64,000 nt of DNA from Candidatus Thorarchaeota archaeon SMTZ1-45. GTDB lineage: Archaea > Asgardarchaeota > Thorarchaeia > Thorarchaeales > Thorarchaeaceae. The notes beneath the pieces were generated by a model, which was given only the letters and a program-made list of their open reading frames with translations, did not search any database and had not been told where the DNA came from. This document shows positions 35,403 to 43,942 of this stretch, one piece after another. The first letter of the stretch is position 1. Each line of letters opens with the position of its first letter. Location of the stretch: contig LRSL01000069.1 in the NCBI GenBank assembly GCA_001563335.1, forward strand, positions 32,001-96,000. The letters run 5' to 3'. A program made the position numbers and the translations under genes.

Positions 35403-36566
35403 TCAACCTCCAAACGGATTTCGTGAACGTCTTTTTTCAAGCGTCATATAAGTTAGTCCAGAAAGTGCCATCAGTCTGTCAATGATTAATCTTGTTTCAT
35501 TTGCAGTTATTTTTGCACGGGCATCAGCCTCAAGAATTGGTGTGGGAATGCCATATTCGGGATGTTGAGAAGAGAGTGGGAGTATTGCTGATAGTGCTTT
35601 ATCCAGTCTATCAGTAACTGTTTCATCATCCTCTGCTGAGAAAAATTCTACTCGTAATGGTAGATCATCCCTCGCTGTTTTTAGATAAGTAACCCAGATA
35701 GATGATGCCCAAGTAGAGGAATGATCACTAGTCGAATTTGGATTATGAAACAGTTCTGATGAATATCGGAATGCAAAAGATCGCTCTCCTTCCTCAAGAA
35801 AAGTGTCAAGTAAGTCACAATCACGAGATATCTTGAGTAACCATCTATAGTCAATACCTTGCATCATTTCAAAGATTGCAGGTTTGCGAACAATATGTGG
35901 AAGTATTTCACCCATTATTGTAGCTACTCGGGTTGATTTGCTATCTTTCACGATGCCCACTAATGTTGTTCCCTTTTTCCTAGCCTTGTTGTAGAGTTGT
36001 TTGTACAGAGATAAGATTTCTTGGAACTTTTCATAGACCATGGAGCCAGTTTGGGGACGGTCTCGAGGATGATAATATAAGGATCCATCAAGGAGAACTA
36101 AATCTGTATGGTATTCGTCAAGAACTGACAAGGCTACTCTTAGTTCAGCGGCAATACGTTCAAGTGAAGCAAGCTGGTCTAGCTCTACACTGGATAATGT
36201 GAGTAGTAACGGACTGACTTTTGGTTCAGGAAAAGCATCAGGATAGAAATCAACAGCCGGGCCTTCTTCCGCACCAAATTGGAATATTACTGCAATTCCT
36301 CTAGTCAAGACTAAATCCATAGATCTGAAATGTTTCCTGACTAGACCACCATCTATGCCTGCAATTCGGAGACCTGAGAGACTAGTAGGCTCTATCTTAG
36401 TATAGAGCTGTTTATCGATAATATTCGATGCAATTGCTGGGAATCTGCTCAAATCAATTTGGTTTCTAATAGTTCTAAGAACCTTTCCAAATCCTTCTTT
36501 TGTTACCTCGATTTGCTCAATTTCCTCAACTAATTTTGATAGTAACTTATCGAGGTTTCTTTCCAC
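35403..36566 (-). CDS. nurA: NurA nuclease
   Basis: AGIDGG, LLDGSL, GIVKDS, YGIP.PI.EAD..AKI. Confidence 0.88.
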   Translation of the reverse strand: MERNLDKLLSKLVEEIEQIEVTKEGFGKVLRTIRNQIDLSRFPAIASNIIDKQLYTKIEPTSLSGLRIAGIDGGLVRKHFRSMDLVLTRGIAVIFQFGAEEGPAVDFYPDAFPEPKVSPLLLTLSSVELDQLASLERIAAELRVALSVLDEYHTDLVLLDGSLYYHPRDRPQTGSMVYEKFQEILSLYKQLYNKARKKGTTLVGIVKDSKSTRVATIMGEILPHIVRKPAIFEMMQGIDYRWLLKISRDCDLLDTFLEEGERSFAFRYSSELFHNPNSTSDHSSTWASSIWVTYLKTARDDLPLRVEFFSAEDDETVTDRLDKALSAILPLSSQHPEYGIPTPILEADARAKITANETRLIIDRLMALSGLTYMTLEKRRSRNPFGG

Positions 36567-38236
36567 TATTTCTTCACTCTCGCCTTTTTGTATTCAAGTG
36601 CAGCCCTTATTAGACCCAAGTAGAGTGGATGAGGATTGTCAGGTCGGGACTTGAACTCTGGATGATATTGAACACCAATCCAAAATGGATGATTAGTGAG
36701 CTCAATCGCATTGATTATTTTTCCAGTCGAATCAAAAGCTGAAACCTTGAGTCCTTTTTCATGCATCTTGTTCAAGTAACGATCAATCAAATGATATCTA
36801 TGTCTGAATCTTTCGTGTGTCTTGTCAGTCCCGTAGATTCTATGCAATTTTGTATCTTCTGCAATATGAACATCATGTCCACCAAGACGCATAGTTCCAC
36901 CCTTGTCCTCTGTAAGCTTCTGATCATCCATTAAATCAACAACAGGATATAGACTATCAATGTCTACTTCTGTAGTATGGGCTCCTTTCCAACCCATGAC
37001 GTTTCTCGCAAAGGCGACAATTGAGAGTTGTGCACCATAACAGATGCCTAAGAGTGGTATTTTGGATTTCAAAGTCACTGTAGCGGCGCAGATCATTCCT
37101 TCAACACCACGTTCCCCAAAACCAGGTGTAAGAAGAACTCCATCCACATCAGATAAGTCGCTAGTGAGACACTCTTCAGTACTTCGCTCTTCTGTTTCAA
37201 TCCATTTTATTGTAACTTTTGTACTACAAACAGCTGCAGCATGTGCTAATGCTTGATTGATACTTTTGTAAGAGTCACCAAGTGTAGTATATTTACCAGG
37301 CATGGCAATTGTTATTGTATCTGATGCTTCATCAAAAGACCGTACCATTTTTGACCAAGAGTCCGTATCAGGTCTTCTTGGTTCCAAACCAAAGTGTTCA
37401 ACAAGAATATTTCCGAGACCTTCTTCCTCGAATGACAACGGAAGTTGATAAATCACAGGAATATCTGGATTCGAGATGACCCTTTCTTTAGGGATATTAC
37501 AGAATAAAGCAATCTTCTCCTTTGCGGCGGCGGGGAGTCTTTTCTCTGCCCTGCAGATAGTGATATCAGGTTGGAGACCTAGGCTTTGGAGTGTTCTAAC
37601 GCTGTGTTGTGTTGGTTTGGTCTTGAACTCTCCTACAGATTTTATATAGGGTACAAGGGTGACATGAACAACAGCAGTACGATTTCGACCTAGTTCGCGT
37701 ACAAGTTGTCTTACGGCCTCAAGGAATGGCATAGCCTCAATGTCACCAACAGTACCACCTATCTCTACTAAGAGAATATCTGGAATTGAATCCTTTTTCA
37801 CAACATCCCAGATTCTTTGTTTGATTCTGTCTGTTATGTGTGGTATGATTTGAACTGTCCTTCCAAGGAATCCACCTTTACGCTCTTCAAGAATGACTGA
37901 AAGGTAGATTTGTCCTGACGTGATATTCTGAGATGGATGTACATTCATTCCAGTGAATCGCTCGTATGTCCCAAAATCCAGATCAATCTCAGATATATTG
38001 AATTCAGAGTCATTAACTGGACGGAATGTCCAAGTCTGGTCTGTTACAAAGACTTCCCCATGTTCAATAGGGTTCAAAGTGCCAGGGTCAATATTCAGAT
38101 ACGGATCAATCTTGATTATTCTGATGTTGTATCCTCGAAATTGAAATAATTTTGCAATTGAAGCAGTAGTAACTCCTTTTCCAATACCAGAGAGAACTCC
38201 GCCCGTTATGAACACAAAATTCGGTTTTTCTTGCAT
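36566..38236 (-). CDS. pyrG: CTP synthase
   Basis: TGGVLSGIGKG, KIDPY.N.DPGT, GGTVGDIE, KTKPTQHSV, GICYG.Q, HPEF. Confidence 0.97.
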   Translation of the reverse strand: MQEKPNFVFITGGVLSGIGKGVTTASIAKLFQFRGYNIRIIKIDPYLNIDPGTLNPIEHGEVFVTDQTWTFRPVNDSEFNISEIDLDFGTYERFTGMNVHPSQNITSGQIYLSVILEERKGGFLGRTVQIIPHITDRIKQRIWDVVKKDSIPDILLVEIGGTVGDIEAMPFLEAVRQLVRELGRNRTAVVHVTLVPYIKSVGEFKTKPTQHSVRTLQSLGLQPDITICRAEKRLPAAAKEKIALFCNIPKERVISNPDIPVIYQLPLSFEEEGLGNILVEHFGLEPRRPDTDSWSKMVRSFDEASDTITIAMPGKYTTLGDSYKSINQALAHAAAVCSTKVTIKWIETEERSTEECLTSDLSDVDGVLLTPGFGERGVEGMICAATVTLKSKIPLLGICYGAQLSIVAFARNVMGWKGAHTTEVDIDSLYPVVDLMDDQKLTEDKGGTMRLGGHDVHIAEDTKLHRIYGTDKTHERFRHRYHLIDRYLNKMHEKGLKVSAFDSTGKIINAIELTNHPFWIGVQYHPEFKSRPDNPHPLYLGLIRAALEYKKARVKK

Positions 38237-38364
38237 AGAATTCAACATCAGTAACCTCAAAAATAGTTTTGGGAAAATGGAAATTCTCCAAGTTTGGAGC
38301 TGCAATTGTATCCTATCTATAAACTATTTGGTCAATATTTTCTAAGACTTGGATTTCTTGTTTG

Positions 38365-38943
38365 TCATACAGGTTGAGCAAGGACACTTACACGCATAGC
38401 ACTTTGAAAGAGGTATTGAAAAGCTTCCATTATGTTGTGACCTTCTCTCGCCACACTCCTGAAGACAGGCACAGATGATGGAATCTTCAAATGCATTCTA
38501 AGATGTTCCTCATGGATTGCACTGGGAAGATCTTGTTTGTTAAGGCACACGATTAATGGAAGAGGGCGTTCTTCTTCTTCAATCATCGATATCAGCTCAT
38601 TCCAGCTTGTTAGATTCTCATTTAGAAGATGTTCTTGAGAGTCTGCGACAAAAATTACTCCATCAGCTCCGACTAGTACCACTTCTCGTGTGGACCTGTA
38701 AAAATCTTGACCTGTGGCAGACCAAATATGAGCATTTATTGTCCAACTATTACTTAGTGAGAAAGGAATAGTGCCAAAATCACAAAACATTGTCCTTCCA
38801 ACAGTATTTTCTATTGAAGTTAGCTTTTCTGCATAGTCTAGTGTTGAAAACAACCATCGAATAGAAGTTGTCTTTCCACTCATTGCAGGTCCAAAGAAGA
38901 CTATTTTGAGTCCCACGGTACGATTCCCATAGTCAATTATCAT
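38365..38943 (-). CDS. MglA-type small GTPase
   Basis: G1 GPAMSGKTT, switch I RTMFCDF, G3 SATGQ (no Asp), GADGVIFVADS, G4 NKQD. Confidence 0.9.
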   Translation of the reverse strand: MIIDYGNRTVGLKIVFFGPAMSGKTTSIRWLFSTLDYAEKLTSIENTVGRTMFCDFGTIPFSLSNSWTINAHIWSATGQDFYRSTREVVLVGADGVIFVADSQEHLLNENLTSWNELISMIEEEERPLPLIVCLNKQDLPSAIHEEHLRMHLKIPSSVPVFRSVAREGHNIMEAFQYLFQSAMRVSVLAQPV

Positions 38944-38957
38944 TTCTTAACCTCCAG

Positions 38958-39878
38958 TCATGTTCCCCACATGCTGTCTACCCATGCTCCAAGTCCAGAC
39001 AATGCTCCACTCTTTACACAATCAGAGAAATCTTCATGCCATTCGGCTCTGATAAATTGAATCAGATCGGGTAGTTCTCCTCCATCCCATCCAATAGCTT
39101 CGTACAGATTCCTCTCAGTCAGAGTTGTGGATGCGCCAAGTTCTCTTGCCAACCGTATTCGTGACAATAGAGTGACTGCTCTACGAGCTGCATGGACATA
39201 GTTGTTGATCTCTTCCTCGAAAACATCTTGTGTCAGTTTCTCAGACTCGTCATCCAGTTTGAGGACTGCTGTTAGGATGTGATTCGATACATTAAGACCA
39301 CGAAGTGATTTCGTAAGAAGACGTCTTATCCGCTCTAGTGATTGTTTCTTCCGAACCAAGATTTTGTTCACAATTTTCTTCTCAACTTCAAGGCTACTAT
39401 TCGTAGATCTAACAAGTGAGAAAGTTATGGATGAGGGCGAACTTACCCTTAAGATTCCGCAATTGCTCGAGTTTTTCAGAATATGAGAAGTTACATCTTG
39501 AAGTGTGTTCTCAGTCACTTGAATACCTAGTACTGTAAAACCTAATGGTACACCAAGAATCCAACCCGCAAAGTGTGAAATTCTATCCATAGCAAGTCGA
39601 AGATTGCCGGATAAACCGCATACAATGGTTCTGCTAACTTCATAGTTGTGTTTTTCTTCTTCCCATACTCCCAGAATCTCTGATTCCGATGTGAAATCAC
39701 GCCAAAATACTAGTTTATGTCGGTGGGAACATAAAGTGGTTAGACTCTCTGTGATGTCATCCACTAATTCGATATCCTCGCCTGCAACAATCACTGGCAT
39801 CCTTTCTAGTAATGTGTTCAACAAGAGCGGAAATTGGTCATCCATTAACTCGATTAATTTCATGATTGAATATGTCAT
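38958..39878 (-). CDS. Putative DENN-like domain protein
   Basis: 'LLNTLLERMPVIVAGEDIELVDDITESL..L' and 'WILGV' echo the core DENN alpha/beta pattern; helical C-terminus. Confidence 0.5.
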   Translation of the reverse strand: MTYSIMKLIELMDDQFPLLLNTLLERMPVIVAGEDIELVDDITESLTTLCSHRHKLVFWRDFTSESEILGVWEEEKHNYEVSRTIVCGLSGNLRLAMDRISHFAGWILGVPLGFTVLGIQVTENTLQDVTSHILKNSSNCGILRVSSPSSITFSLVRSTNSSLEVEKKIVNKILVRKKQSLERIRRLLTKSLRGLNVSNHILTAVLKLDDESEKLTQDVFEEEINNYVHAARRAVTLLSRIRLARELGASTTLTERNLYEAIGWDGGELPDLIQFIRAEWHEDFSDCVKSGALSGLGAWVDSMWGT

Positions 39879-40822
39879 GGATCTCTCCTCGTTAGCATTA
39901 AGCCACCGTTGGTACCCCCTGACAATAACAGTTCTTTCAAATCATCTGGAACTGCAGGTTTTACAGCAGATACTGCAGCCAAGACTCGTCTTATTTCTTC
40001 AATGTAATGTTTCAATAGAAGCCTCATAAGACCAAGCTTTTGATTATCCTTTTCCACCCATAAACTGAACACTCCATTTGGAACTGCATAGATAAAATGA
40101 CGTGTTTCCTCTGTTTCGCACAAGACAGTTTGAAGGGAGCTGTTTCGGAGCGTTCGTACAACTCGTTCTGATGCGTCATGAAGTGCAAAGGACATTGCGG
40201 CTAGTCGGTCGTTTGTGAATCCTTCTAATGAAACACGGACACCACCACTTAGCGACAAAAATACTGACCCGATATTTGGTATGCAGTCATGCACTTGACG
40301 AAGGAGAGCTCTAAGACTAAGTGCTTGAGAGCGGTCAAGTGAAATCATTGATCTTGAAACACCATAACTCGTATCACGACCTTCAGCCACAGAAAATCCT
40401 TGTAGTACTTTTTGAGTTTCATCAAGACTATAAGATCGAAGAGGAGGAAGTCGCCCATCTACATGTTGTCTAAGAAGAAATGATAGTCTGGAAAGATTGT
40501 CTTTCATCTCAATGAATAATGCGGCAAGATTCACTCTAGGTGCAGTTGTCACTGTCAAGAAATAGTCTGGATCATTTGGTAACGAGGCAAGGAATACCTT
40601 GGAAGTATCAGACTCCATTAATAGATACTTGAAATAGCCATGTATGAGTTTAGCTACCCCAAAAATTGCGCAGGTTGAGGATGCCACTGCAAAAACTTCA
40701 TCCTTACTGAACCATACTCCTGCGCTTGCTACAGGGAGTCCGTCTTTTTGAATCAAAACGACATTCTCAACGCCAGTGATGGTCTTAATGTTCTGTAAGG
40801 TTTCAGTTAGTTCATCGCTCAA
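39875..40822 (-). CDS. Tandem roadblock/LC7 (MglB-like) domain protein
   Basis: Two repeats of 'L..I....GV....L...DGL.V.S...A.S....L...L.E......NL(A/G)L'. Confidence 0.82.
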   Translation of the reverse strand: MSDELTETLQNIKTITGVENVVLIQKDGLPVASAGVWFSKDEVFAVASSTCAIFGVAKLIHGYFKYLLMESDTSKVFLASLPNDPDYFLTVTTAPRVNLAALFIEMKDNLSRLSFLLRQHVDGRLPPLRSYSLDETQKVLQGFSVAEGRDTSYGVSRSMISLDRSQALSLRALLRQVHDCIPNIGSVFLSLSGGVRVSLEGFTNDRLAAMSFALHDASERVVRTLRNSSLQTVLCETEETRHFIYAVPNGVFSLWVEKDNQKLGLMRLLLKHYIEEIRRVLAAVSAVKPAVPDDLKELLLSGGTNGGLMLTRRDP

Positions 40823-40960
40823 GTCCTCAACTCCGGACGGAAGGTTGGGTTCAATTTAGAATCCATATCGCAACTATATAACCACCACACAGAATTGAGG
40901 GTTTCAGAAACTTAGCTTGCAAGTCTATGATGCGATCAGACCATTTGTTCGAAAATATCC

Positions 40961-42259
40961 TCACATATGTATCAGAGCAGTATCAGGAACTTCTTGGAAG
41001 ACCTCCCGTGCAGCTCTCCCAACTTTTATGCGATTCTTATCGAATGTGTACACTCGAATTACATCAAGATACGTTTTCATCATTTCTGCAATATTAGAGT
41101 ACTCTGAGAGTTTATGCGGAACTCTCTTTCCATCAAATACCTCAAAAATCCCTATCTCCATTGGATCAAGTTGGTGAGGATTATATGGTACTGATGGTAA
41201 AGTGGGAACATCAACTATCACTTCGTCACAATTGACTCCAGCAATAGATGCAATTTCTTCTTGAATGCTCTCACGAACTTTTGTTTTAGTGAGAATCTTA
41301 GAAACAAATCGGTCTTCTGTATGAATGACCTTTTCGAAAGCTGACTTGTAAAGAATACGAGAGTCGAGAAGATTAACCATTTTTGATGCTTCTTTGGCAT
41401 CCTCTGATTCTGAAGTATTTATACTTCGAACTCTTGAAATGAGTGACATATCATCTAGTTCTAGGAACTCTTCAGGGGAGGAAAAACTAGTAAGATCTAA
41501 CACTTTGTCTGCAGCGTCTATTAGTTTGACCAACATGACTTCGACACTTCTAACTGTTTTGTGATAATATACATTGAGAAACATCTCATATCTTGCTACA
41601 AGAAACGATTCTAATGCACCTCTTGCTGCAATATCAAATTGCATCTGATAGTTCTTTGAGATTTCAATGCTATTGATCAGACGGTGAATGTCAACTAGTC
41701 CATAGTTTACCCCACAGTAGAATGAGTCTCGAATCAGGTAATCCATCTTATCAGAGTCTATTTGCCCAGCAACAATTCCAGCTAAAATAGCATCCTTCTT
41801 GGTCTTCTGACGACCTCGAACTAAGTCAGCTATTCTTTTCTTCGAGATTCCATCAGATTCTAGCAAATCGCTCAGTTCACTCTTGAGGATTATCCACTCT
41901 GTCACATCCTCGTGATTCATTCCACGTTTCTCTATGAGTACTTCCTCAAAGACATGACTAAAAGGACCATGACCAATATCATGGAGTAAGCCTGCTATTC
42001 TAACTTCTTGGAGTGTCTGGTTTCCAAGACCCATTCGGCTTAGAAGTCTTCTACCACTGAGGCCTGCAAGATACATAACACCGATACAGTGACCAAAACG
42101 TGTATGTTCTGCTGTTGGATAAACAAAATGGCCACCAGAAAGCTGTTTGATTCTTCTTAGTCTTTGATAGGGTAATGAATTGATGATTTTAGCCTCAGTT
42201 TCAGTAATACCTATGAAACCATGGATTGGGTCATTAATCTCCATAGCAAATTTCAACAT
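40961..42259 (-). CDS. HD-domain phosphohydrolase (SAMHD1-like dNTPase)
   Basis: DPIHG, QRLRRIKQL, HTRF.H..G, LLHDIGHGPFSH.FE, D.DKMDYL.RD, VYYHK. Confidence 0.92.
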   Translation of the reverse strand: MLKFAMEINDPIHGFIGITETEAKIINSLPYQRLRRIKQLSGGHFVYPTAEHTRFGHCIGVMYLAGLSGRRLLSRMGLGNQTLQEVRIAGLLHDIGHGPFSHVFEEVLIEKRGMNHEDVTEWIILKSELSDLLESDGISKKRIADLVRGRQKTKKDAILAGIVAGQIDSDKMDYLIRDSFYCGVNYGLVDIHRLINSIEISKNYQMQFDIAARGALESFLVARYEMFLNVYYHKTVRSVEVMLVKLIDAADKVLDLTSFSSPEEFLELDDMSLISRVRSINTSESEDAKEASKMVNLLDSRILYKSAFEKVIHTEDRFVSKILTKTKVRESIQEEIASIAGVNCDEVIVDVPTLPSVPYNPHQLDPMEIGIFEVFDGKRVPHKLSEYSNIAEMMKTYLDVIRVYTFDKNRIKVGRAAREVFQEVPDTALIHM

Positions 42260-42281: not shown

Positions 42282-43025
42282 TTACATCTGAGGGTCAAAA
42301 GACCGAATCTCACGTACCAATTCCTCAGCAGTATCTATTTCTGATATACATAAAGGTAGATGTATGCTGTCAGCTATTCGTATAGCAAGTGAATCCAATT
42401 CTTTTATTCCTTGAAGTATAACCACTGCGGGTTTTACTGCAGCAGAGGTCCCAATCTGACTAGCTTTGATGGCTACCATTGGGGAACGCCCTGTTGTAAC
42501 ATTTGTAAGAATGGCTCCCCGCTGAGTTGTTCCACCATATAGTCGGAGAAGCTGTTGGGGAGTTAGGCTAACAATGGCCTTTATGCTATCAAGAGCTGTA
42601 TAGCCATAGATGTCTCTATCGAGCAAATTTCGATGAGTAAGAACTTTGCAGTTAAGATGTTCTACAAGTAACCTTGCGGGTATTGGAAATCCGAATTCAC
42701 GACTATCAAGAATAGCATCCGAAGCGATTTCGGGGGCGATTAGTTTCTCAAGTGCCATAGCTACTCGCCCACCATCAGAAGCATCCATCTCAATTAACCC
42801 TTCGACAAACCGTTTAATGGTCTCAACTCGGGGTGATTTCCGTCTACCACTTTCATAATCACTTATGACTGAAGGCGATACATTGAGATACTTAGCGAGA
42901 TTCTTCTGAGAGATATGAAATCTTTCGCGCCATCGTCGCATAACAGCGCCAGGATCATTCTCAGCGAGGCATATCTCACCAGCCATTGCTTCTGCTAACC
43001 TCCGGAGAGCCTCACTACTGTCCAT
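42282..43025 (-). CDS. XRE-family HTH regulator (archaeal COG1709-like)
   Basis: AGEI.L...PG..MRRWRE.F.ISQ..LA..L.VSPSVISDYESGRRKSP; TGRSPMVAIK. Confidence 0.85.
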   Translation of the reverse strand: MDSSEALRRLAEAMAGEICLAENDPGAVMRRWRERFHISQKNLAKYLNVSPSVISDYESGRRKSPRVETIKRFVEGLIEMDASDGGRVAMALEKLIAPEIASDAILDSREFGFPIPARLLVEHLNCKVLTHRNLLDRDIYGYTALDSIKAIVSLTPQQLLRLYGGTTQRGAILTNVTTGRSPMVAIKASQIGTSAAVKPAVVILQGIKELDSLAIRIADSIHLPLCISEIDTAEELVREIRSFDPQM

Positions 43026-43177
43026 AATATGTCTGCCCTTTGAAATCGCTATAAGAGTTGCGTAGACCCTAATTTGAGCCTTCTTCAATAAGGATAAAGA
43101 GGATAGATTTGTGTAAAATTGGAATCGTACCGAAGAACTCAAAGAGGTTGATTTGACACTTCTTGTTGGTACTATAG

Positions 43178-43942
43178 ATGTATTTCACATTCATTGTTGG
43201 TACAGCAGGCTCAGGTAAGTCCTTGCTAACTGCATCGCTTGAGAAATGGTTAGTTGGCTCGGATTTGAGTGTGACTGTAGTTAATCTCGATCCTGGTGTG
43301 GATTCTCCCCCCTATACAAGTGATGTTGATATTAGAGAATATGTCGATTATGGAGAAGTCATGAGCTCATTTGGATTAGGCCCAAATGGAGCTCTTGTAG
43401 CTTCGTTGGACATGGCTGTAAGTAAGGTCAATGATATTAGGGATGAGATTATCGATACTGACCGAGATTATGTACTTGTAGACTGCCCAGGTCAAATGGA
43501 GCTTTTTGCGTATCGTAACTCTGGACCTTTAATGGTATCAAGTTTGAGAGGTGATGATCCAGCACTTTCGCTATATTTACTCGATTCTAATATAGCCCGT
43601 ACTCCCACAGGTTATCTCTCATCAACACTCCTAGGGATTTCAATAAGTATTCGTTTTGACCTTCCACAATTGAATGTCTTAAGCAAACCAGATATTCTGA
43701 CTGAGAAGGAGGTAGAGGAAATTGTGGAATGGGGTTCGGAGTTCTATTTACTTGAAGAAGCTCTCGAATCATCATCGGAAGGATTGCGGAGAGAATACTC
43801 ACGGTCCGTTTTGGATATGCTTGAATCACTAGACACAGCTACCGCAAGTGTGCCTGTTTCAGCAAAAGAAATGACTGGAATCGATATATTGTATGGAGAG
43901 ATGCAACGCATCTTTGCAGGTGGCGATAATCTATACGAGTGA
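43178..43942 (+). CDS. GPN-loop GTPase
   Basis: GTAGSGKS, NLDPG, LGPNG, D.PGQME. Confidence 0.95.
   Translation: MYFTFIVGTAGSGKSLLTASLEKWLVGSDLSVTVVNLDPGVDSPPYTSDVDIREYVDYGEVMSSFGLGPNGALVASLDMAVSKVNDIRDEIIDTDRDYVLVDCPGQMELFAYRNSGPLMVSSLRGDDPALSLYLLDSNIARTPTGYLSSTLLGISISIRFDLPQLNVLSKPDILTEKEVEEIVEWGSEFYLLEEALESSSEGLRREYSRSVLDMLESLDTATASVPVSAKEMTGIDILYGEMQRIFAGGDNLYE

Follow-up and report, generated by a model that had tools for sequence, protein, structure and literature searches.

What does a compact three-gene cluster in a Thorarchaeota genome encode, and could its products make up a small GTPase switch together with the proteins that regulate it? The cluster lies on the minus strand of a 64,000-nt stretch of DNA from Candidatus Thorarchaeota archaeon SMTZ1-45 (GenBank assembly GCA_001563335.1, contig LRSL01000069.1, positions 32,001 to 96,000; herein the window, with ~40% G+C), and all coordinates given below are positions in this window. 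Three open reading frames (ORFs) follow one another in the order of transcription: a tandem-roadblock gene (39875-40822; 315 residues, TTG start), whose product is proposed to be a single-chain MglB-like platform; a gene for a DENN-fold protein that lacks a longin domain (38958-39878; 306 residues, ATG start); and a gene for an MglA-type small GTPase (38365-38943; 192 residues, ATG start). The roadblock and DENN genes share an ATGA stop/start overlap (39875-39878, minus strand) of the kind expected for translational coupling, and a 14-nt spacer (38944-38957) separates the DENN gene from the GTPase gene, with GGAGG at 38955-38951 before the GTPase ATG. A preliminary description of the locus had reported three tightly coupled minus-strand genes with this overlap and this gap, and the sequence agrees with it on the ORF coordinates and on both junctions. 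As set out below, the window very probably carries a copy of the Asgard Roadblock/DENN/small-GTPase operon.

Pfam and NCBIfam searches with the 306-residue protein returned nothing above noise; no DENN-type model of Pfam matched it at expectation values (E) up to 1, nor did any chain sequence of the Protein Data Bank (PDB). Matches to Pfam RRF (E = 0.012) and RsgI_M (E = 0.1) and NCBIfam matches at E of ~0.03 or above were regarded as noise; ferritin (E = 0.015 to 0.029), returned when the family profile was compared with PDB chains, was taken as a chance match on a helical stretch. Close homologs of the protein bear names that put the window in Thorarchaeota, an Asgard lineage. Relatives of ~300 residues each number 227 at 90% clustering and form 65 clusters at 50%; a search among proteins of 546 to 2000 residues yielded no longer, fused form of the family, which is weak evidence. 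When Pfam was run on 37 family members, Folliculin_C was touched by two of them (best E = 4.8e-4) and DENN by one (E = 0.093). The neighbors of the protein in a language-model comparison, which we treat as leads only, belong to the C9orf72-like, Folliculin_C/SMCR8_C, SPA, DENND11, and Avl9 families. By sequence criteria the protein is outside every curated DENN family.

Its predicted structure is more telling. The AlphaFold2 (AF2) model, built from a 37-row alignment, has a mean predicted local distance difference test score (pLDDT) of 90.2 and a predicted template modeling score (pTM) of 0.86, and its secondary structure, assigned with DSSP, falls into two lobes. Residues 1 through 157 (39408-39878, minus strand) form an α/β sandwich of P-loop-NTPase-like topology, in which strands 29-33, 54-58, 84-88, 106-111, and 141-155 alternate with helices; residues 164 through 304 (38967-39389, minus strand) are all helical, with helices at 164-192, 199-205, 209-246, 255-262, 269-280, and 294-304. 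In the 37-row alignment, R26, P28, R53, E75, R83, and W106 show little or no variation. The five best Foldseek matches of the model are all folliculin (FLCN), at E = 7.8e-3 to 1.3e-2 (none reaching 1e-3) with probabilities of 0.87 to 0.99, and C9orf72-SMCR8, DENND1B, and DENND10 rank after them.

A comparison with VIA-align against 48,161 chains, which is independent of Foldseek, places DENN-module chains in the top five positions; when the 986 best chains from Foldseek are aligned in the same way, the first eight are DENN-module entries (Z = 9.9 to 13.0). The model matches DENND10 (8p0v_M; Z = 13.0; 187 residues, root mean square deviation [rmsd] 4.4; chain residues 157-357), FLCN (3v42_B; Z = 12.7; rmsd 3.5 over 187 residues; chain residues 345-558), C9orf72 (7o2w_A; Z = 11.2; chain residues 202-468), and SMCR8 (Z = 10.7), with the DENND1A/B exchange factors scoring lower (Z = 9.7 to 9.9; DENND1B-Rab35, 3tw8_C, Z = 9.9). 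The alignments with FLCN, C9orf72, SMCR8, DENND10, and DENND1A/B span both lobes, reaching model residues 278 through 300. At the other end, model residues 1 through 3 align to FLCN 345, DENND10 157, and C9orf72 202, and the longin (uDENN) domain is not in the 306-residue chain. As modeled, the protein is a cDENN+dDENN module without a longin. The earlier call of a DENN-like protein had been made from motif resemblance alone; the AF2 model and the two structure comparisons now supply the fold, and the unrelated fold that had been named as the finding that would speak against that call did not appear, since both lobes align to DENN modules.

Two stretches of the 315-residue product of the first gene match Pfam Robl_LC7 (score, 38 bits; cutoff, 23). 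The AF2 model of this protein (pLDDT, 78.4; pTM, 0.74; built from 25 orthologs) displays the α-β-β-α-β-β-β-α order twice (DSSP), in residues 1 through 120 (unit 1; 40463-40822, minus strand) and again in residues 164 through 282 (unit 2; 39977-40333, minus strand), with a poorly predicted linker between them. Unit 1 is the more conserved half, with G17, D27, G28, P30, G35, and E42 invariant. Foldseek returned the Asgard roadblock crystal structures 9jue_B and 7f8m_D, LAMTOR2 (6b9x_B), and MglB (6hjm_H) at E of ~1e-6 to 1e-5, with target-normalized template modeling (TM) scores of 0.77 to 0.83 over ~120 columns each. The profiles of the two units match each other in hhalign (probability, 91%; E = 1.1e-6; 111 columns), and because of this profile-profile match we regard the chain as an internal duplication. 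A single chain holding two roadblock units, as previously suggested, is borne out by the repeated topology of the model and by the homology of its halves. The pTM of 0.74 suggests a fixed arrangement of the two units.

Beyond unit 2 lies a C-terminal tail (residues 283 through 315; 39878-39976, minus strand), with a short predicted helix at residues 293 through 300, pLDDT values of 31 to 48 in its last blocks, and a consensus P..DLK..L that is loosely conserved among the orthologs. In MglB, the Ct-helix (C-terminal helix) binds its GTPase partner at a place remote from the active site (PMC6785124); helix 293-300, in this low-confidence tail, is by analogy a candidate counterpart. The invariant unit-1 loop D27-G28-x-P30 might be the equivalent of the “GP motif” described for longin GTPase-activating proteins (GAPs) (PMC12290439). 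An Asp-Gly pair is reported to be conserved in MglB proteins (PMC4316618), and a circular permutation relates longins to roadblocks (PMC3521125).

For the 192-residue GTPase, a search of solved structures gives MglA chains as the four best matches (E = 2.3e-29 to 1.1e-27; 3t12_A, 2.3e-29; 6hjh_A, 9.5e-28), and the best solved relative outside MglA is Rab28 (E = 3.5e-9); Pfam assigns only general small-GTPase families (Arf, E = 1.6e-12; Roc, Ras, and Gtr1_RagA). An alignment of 25 rows, comprising the window protein and 24 orthologs from the 50 loci described below, locates the P-loop (G18-T25), the switch I residues R50-T51, the G3 motif S75-A-T-G-Q79, and the G4 motif N135-K-Q-D138. G49-R50-T51 is present in all 25 rows and aligns with the Arg-Thr pair of Thermus thermophilus MglA; the P-loop, N135-K136-x-D138, and A165 are likewise kept throughout. 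In G3, A76-T77-G78-Q79 is invariant and position 75 is Ser or Thr instead of the usual Asp (25/25 rows), as expected for the MglA-type GTPase lacking the G3 Asp that had been predicted here. Group 1 MglA proteins are described as having an Arg adjoining the G2 Thr and a G3 motif without Asp, of the form TVPGQ (Wuichet and Sogaard-Andersen, PMC4316618). In the 25 rows the TVPGQ form is absent and S/T-A-T-G-Q stands in its place; judged by its sequence, the protein is a variant of the Group 1 pattern, with R50 as its own predicted arginine finger and Q79 as its predicted catalytic glutamine.

Having defined the three proteins, we turned to their distribution among Asgard archaea, taking an even sample of 201 genomes across the phylum. 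Of these, 108 have a member of the DENN family, as do 62 of the 85 genomes with completeness of ≥90% and contamination of ≤5%. By genome family (numbered here, the window's own being f1) the DENN family is found in 42/43 genomes of f1, 35/40 of f9, 15/19 of f12, 4/4 of f3, 4/4 of f15, and 3/3 of f24, and also in f2, f6, and f8; with this query it was not found in f5 (0/21), f22 (0/10), f14 (0/7), f20 (0/7), and others. The genome of the window has a single copy. Fifty loci were compared, the window itself being one; 30 of them were the top matches, and the other 20 were distant matches chosen so as to represent the families. In all 50, drawn from nine families and with DENN identities down to ~25 to 35%, the order is roadblock tandem, DENN, GTPase on one strand, so that conservation of the three-gene order, on which the preliminary description had made its reading depend, holds without exception in this set. 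With start sites chosen by homology, the distance from the roadblock gene to the DENN gene is at most 23 nt in 49/50 loci (−4 in 31/50), the single exception probably reflecting a start site placed too far downstream, and the distance from DENN to GTPase is at most 22 nt in 50/50. On the same choice of starts, the first gene begins with TTG at the same position in most close relatives, and most distant loci have an ATG within a few codons of it. In a profile search, full-length tandem-roadblock matches were confined to the DENN-bearing families (f1, f2, f3, f6, f8, f9, f12, f15, and f24); families without DENN gave only single-roadblock matches to the tandem profile, near E = 1e-11.

The region upstream of the first gene is also conserved. 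A Shine-Dalgarno-like GGAG (40831-40834, minus strand), a putative ribosome-binding element, stands 8 nt before the roadblock TTG. Farther upstream is the putative promoter element TGTGGTGGTTATATA (40875-40889, minus strand), in which TTATATA (40881-40875) comes after a conserved G-rich element and stands 59 nt ahead of the TTG start. The TATA-like box noted earlier is therefore present, at a position one base off the 40876-40882 first assigned to it. A motif written as TGTGG[TAG]G[GA]TTA[TA]ATA occurs upstream of the first gene in 31 of the 32 f1 loci, mostly 59 nt before the start, and in none of the 18 other loci; it has a single occurrence in the 64-kb window, at 40889. In 47/50 loci the 120 nt preceding the first gene contain a shorter TATA-type core, G[GTA]TT[TA][TA]A[TA]A, compared with 13 of 1066 background 120-nt segments taken from the window; as the promoter motif was written after the alignment had been viewed, this contrast is descriptive. 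We take it to be a putative TATA box beside a putative factor-binding site. Archaeal B-recognition elements are A-rich, which the element abutting the box here, TGTGG(T/A/G)G(G/A) at 40882-40889, does not resemble. This G-rich element occupies the same place in L002-L030, L045, and L046, is conserved in 31/32 f1 loci although protein identity falls to ~54%, and may be a candidate binding site for a regulator. Because order and strand are constant in 50/50 loci, the spacers are tiny, and the TATA-type core is shared, the three-gene arrangement exceeds chance.

A paralogous operon in family f12 bears on the role of the DENN protein. In three of the four f12 loci fetched (L052:3440-4967, L053:3964-5530, and L054:1772-3341, from genomes G073, G022, and G118, respectively) a full-length roadblock tandem is followed directly by an MglA-type GTPase with no DENN gene; the tandem scores E = 1e-88 to 1e-92 with the roadblock profile and the GTPase E = 1e-78 to 1e-82 with the GTPase profile. 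At the fourth locus (L051, genome G011) the tandem is present and no close GTPase comes after it. In f12, four genomes lack a DENN match (G022, G079, G110, and G118), and each of these has, among the matches listed, one full-length tandem, at E = 1e-84 to 1e-90, which is in the range of the paralog; the loci from G022 and G118 show the two-gene form. Since this DENN-less operon exists, the DENN protein is not needed for the core roadblock-GTPase pair.

Further GTPase genes were seen in other contexts. In all seven f9 loci fetched, a second small GTPase of ~220 to 280 residues lies on the opposite strand, 0.5 to 2.6 kb beyond the operon GTPase (L037:237-944, L039:270-923, L040:2302-2994, L043:2302-2997, L044:2094-2936, L047:2220-2927, and L048:2094-2795). 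The one in L039 matches Pfam Arf (E = 3e-18). Similarity of this second GTPase to the window GTPase is weak (E of ~1e-16 to 1e-20), and no such second GTPase was seen in the fetched loci of other families. The window's own genome has a second MglA-type paralog on another contig (L055:2655-4675, contig C55; 190 residues; E = 3.7e-45 to the GTPase profile), co-oriented with three single-domain roadblock genes of 127, 154, and 123 residues, two of which touch the LAMTOR5 and MP1 models; L055 is an unfused roadblock-GTPase cluster within the same organism.

What, then, might the three proteins do together? The best explanation of the operon as a whole is that it encodes a self-contained GTPase cycle with two regulators, a proposal that we hold to be evenly balanced between right and wrong. 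The stop/start overlap suggests that the roadblock tandem and the DENN protein are made together, by coupled translation, and act as one regulator, which would amount to a split longin-DENN module. The roadblock pseudo-dimer would bind one GTPase molecule as the MglB dimer binds MglA, and would speed hydrolysis by positioning R50 and Q79 while contributing no catalytic residue of its own; MglB is described as acting on MglA by repositioning intrinsic residues, and as also aiding exchange (PMC6785124, PMC13408092). The DENN lobe would bind to the GTPase switch regions in the GDP-bound or nucleotide-free state and favor nucleotide exchange, and for a DENN lobe as the GTPase-binding part there is a precedent among the structural matches, namely DENND1B-Rab35 (3tw8_C, at the Z of 9.9 given above). 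This division of labor, with hydrolysis assigned to the roadblock protein and exchange to the DENN protein, is drawn by analogy, and we put its chances slightly short of even. At the level of fold and synteny the three-part reading is supported. A complex prediction for the three chains with DENN as partner scored 0.00; as its controls were not run, it weighs neither for nor against binding.

Several results tell against such a cycle, or against the DENN protein as its exchange factor. By sequence, the 306-residue protein matches no DENN-type Pfam model, and only 2/37 relatives reach Folliculin_C; the G3 motif of the GTPase departs from TVPGQ in every row; and f12 has a roadblock-GTPase operon that does without DENN. 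The closest folds are those of DENND10, FLCN, and C9orf72 (Z = 11.2 to 13.0), with the DENND1A/B exchange factors below them (Z = 9.7 to 9.9), and we know of no guanine nucleotide exchange factor (GEF) catalysis by the DENN lobe of DENND10, folliculin, or C9orf72. Bacterial MglB, moreover, is described as having both GAP and GEF properties on its own (PMC13408092). In the main rival account, the roadblock protein alone performs both GAP and exchange functions, as MglB does. The DENN protein would then have no catalytic part and would serve as a scaffold, adaptor, or effector that links the switch to a membrane or to some other machinery, possibly as a dimer like the DENN-DENN pair of FLCN-FNIP2 or C9orf72-SMCR8. 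The ranking of the folds (DENND10, 13.0; FLCN, 12.7; and C9orf72, 11.2, above the DENND1 exchange factors at 9.9 and 9.7), the DENN-less double-roadblock paralog in f12, the bifunctionality of MglB (PMC6785124, PMC13408092), and a GTPase that needs no external arginine finger all favor this account. Yet no conserved adaptor partner stands beside the operon, whose flanks vary between families; the α/β lobe keeps the near-invariant charged and aromatic residues R26, R53, E75, R83, and W106; and a DENN gene placed between the roadblock and GTPase genes, with a stop/start overlap, fits a direct regulator at least equally. We consider a scaffolding DENN protein possible, though rather doubtful.

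The fold assignment itself could be questioned on the ground that the 306-residue protein is a degenerate P-loop ATPase-like domain, of the RecA or secretion-ATPase type, whose helical tail makes it converge on DENN. Secretion ATPases and RuvB-like and RecA-like chains do align to it at Z = 8 to 10, no sequence-profile match ties it to DENN families, and the Foldseek E values are weak (best 7.8e-3, none at or below 1e-3). These ATPase alignments are, however, confined to residues 1 through ~160, and alignment across both lobes, from residue 1 to 278-300, was obtained only with DENN-module chains, which also take the top five places among 48,161 chains and the top eight among 986. The cDENN domain is described as an α/β three-layer domain with about five parallel strands in a P-loop-NTPase-like order and no nucleotide-binding motifs (PMC3521125), and ATPase matches to the first lobe are therefore to be expected. 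In the 306-residue sequence neither a Walker A (GxxxxGK[ST]) nor a Walker B motif is present, the loop after strand 29-33 reading GEDIEL, and the contacts of family members with Folliculin_C (2/37) and DENN (1/37) and the language-model leads point the same way, so that an ATPase origin appears highly improbable. Hardly credible, finally, is the notion that the three genes are mere neighbors with no shared function: order and strand are kept in 50/50 loci while the flanks change between families, overlaps or spacers stay at or below 23 nt at the two junctions in 49/50 and 50/50 loci, and full-length tandem matches occur in the same nine families as DENN, adjoining it in all 50 loci.

Around the operon, the genes beyond the GTPase side are NurA (35403-36566) and CTP synthase (36566-38305); beyond the roadblock side lie an HD + HD_assoc_2 phosphohydrolase (40961-42259), an HTH_3 protein (42282-43142), and a GPN-loop GTPase (43178-43942, plus strand). 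In most of the f1 loci fetched, and in f2 (L033), the trio sits between the HD-domain gene and CTP synthase, which do not flank it in the other families. No fourth conserved gene was found in the loci compared: L035 and L039 have ORFs of ~520 residues in convergent orientation to the operon, and these are dissimilar to one another, and the other neighbors are unrelated housekeeping genes. A second TATA-like sequence, TTTATAGA (38323-38316), stands only ~11 nt before the listed TTG start of CTP synthase (38305); CTP synthase probably starts farther downstream than listed, under what is probably a promoter of its own.

A wider reading, which we offer tentatively, is that the operon keeps, with its parts still unfused, the arrangement ancestral to the longin-DENN regulators of eukaryotes (FLCN-FNIP, C9orf72-SMCR8, and the DENND proteins): a single-chain roadblock pseudo-heterodimer and a free DENN lobe would assemble into a bifunctional GAP/GEF machine, and the client that this machine first served would be an MglA-type GTPase equipped with its own arginine finger. 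If so, DENN would have arisen before eukaryotes as an add-on to an MglA-MglB switch, and the DENN-less paralog of f12 would represent either the state before that addition or the state after its loss. In eukaryotes, DENN and longin/roadblock modules regulate Rab, Arf, and Rag GTPases in membrane traffic and nutrient signaling. The archaeal version is compact, with three small soluble proteins behind one promoter, and offers a tractable system that could reveal what a DENN lobe does when it is unfused from a longin, and how such regulators originated. The MglA Group 1-like catalytic residues, the tandem roadblock, the natural DENN-less paralog, and the conserved promoter element are all useful for bench work.

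An operon of Roadblock, small GTPase, and DENN genes, conserved in most Asgard archaea, was predicted by Liu et al. (bioRxiv 10.1101/2020.10.19.343400), who propose that the module is an exchange factor analogous to FLCN. The concept has been in print since 2020, and the window adds confirmation and details, of which the Group 1 MglA catalytic signature, the DENN-less f12 paralog, and the conserved promoter element go beyond the passages of Liu et al. that treat the operon. As the DENN family is single-copy in this genome, the two operons should be the same, and we infer the identity with their Asgard clusters of orthologous genes (asCOGs); the same three kinds of protein, their adjacency, and their conservation (50/50 loci here, with DENN in 108/201 genomes) are common to both. 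Brief mentions of Asgard DENN domains, or of prokaryotic DENN folds, appear in later papers. Tran et al. report structures of MglA-like GTPases and roadblocks from Asgard archaea and do not mention DENN, and Dinet et al. present a model of an MglA-MglB-like pair from Thorarchaeota. The literature searched, which does not cover most subscription journals, yielded no experimental test of the three proteins.

Set beside known systems, the GTPase differs from Rab in being MglA-type by sequence (E = 2e-29, vs. 3.5e-9 for the best Rab), and the roadblock protein is a tandem. With the MglA-MglB systems of T. thermophilus and Myxococcus xanthus (3t12, 6izw, and 6h5b) the operon shares the switch I Arg-Thr, the catalytic Gln, a G3 motif without Asp, and a roadblock-fold partner encoded in the same operon. 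It departs from them in that the two roadblock units are fused in one chain, unlike the MglB homodimer, in that a DENN-fold gene stands between the roadblock and GTPase genes, in its S/T-A-T-G-Q form of G3 in place of TVPGQ, and in its archaeal host; the bacterial pairs serve polarity or motility. Membership of the 306-residue protein in the eukaryotic longin-DENN families was not found at the sequence level in the Pfam and PDB sequence searches. With FLCN-FNIP2, C9orf72-SMCR8, DENND10, and DENND1A/B the operon has in common the cDENN+dDENN fold, as modeled, and a roadblock- or longin-type platform encoded alongside it. It is unlike these complexes in that the DENN chain has no longin, the platform being a separately encoded roadblock tandem, and in that the predicted client is not Rag, Arf, or Rab but an MglA-type GTPase with an arginine finger of its own.

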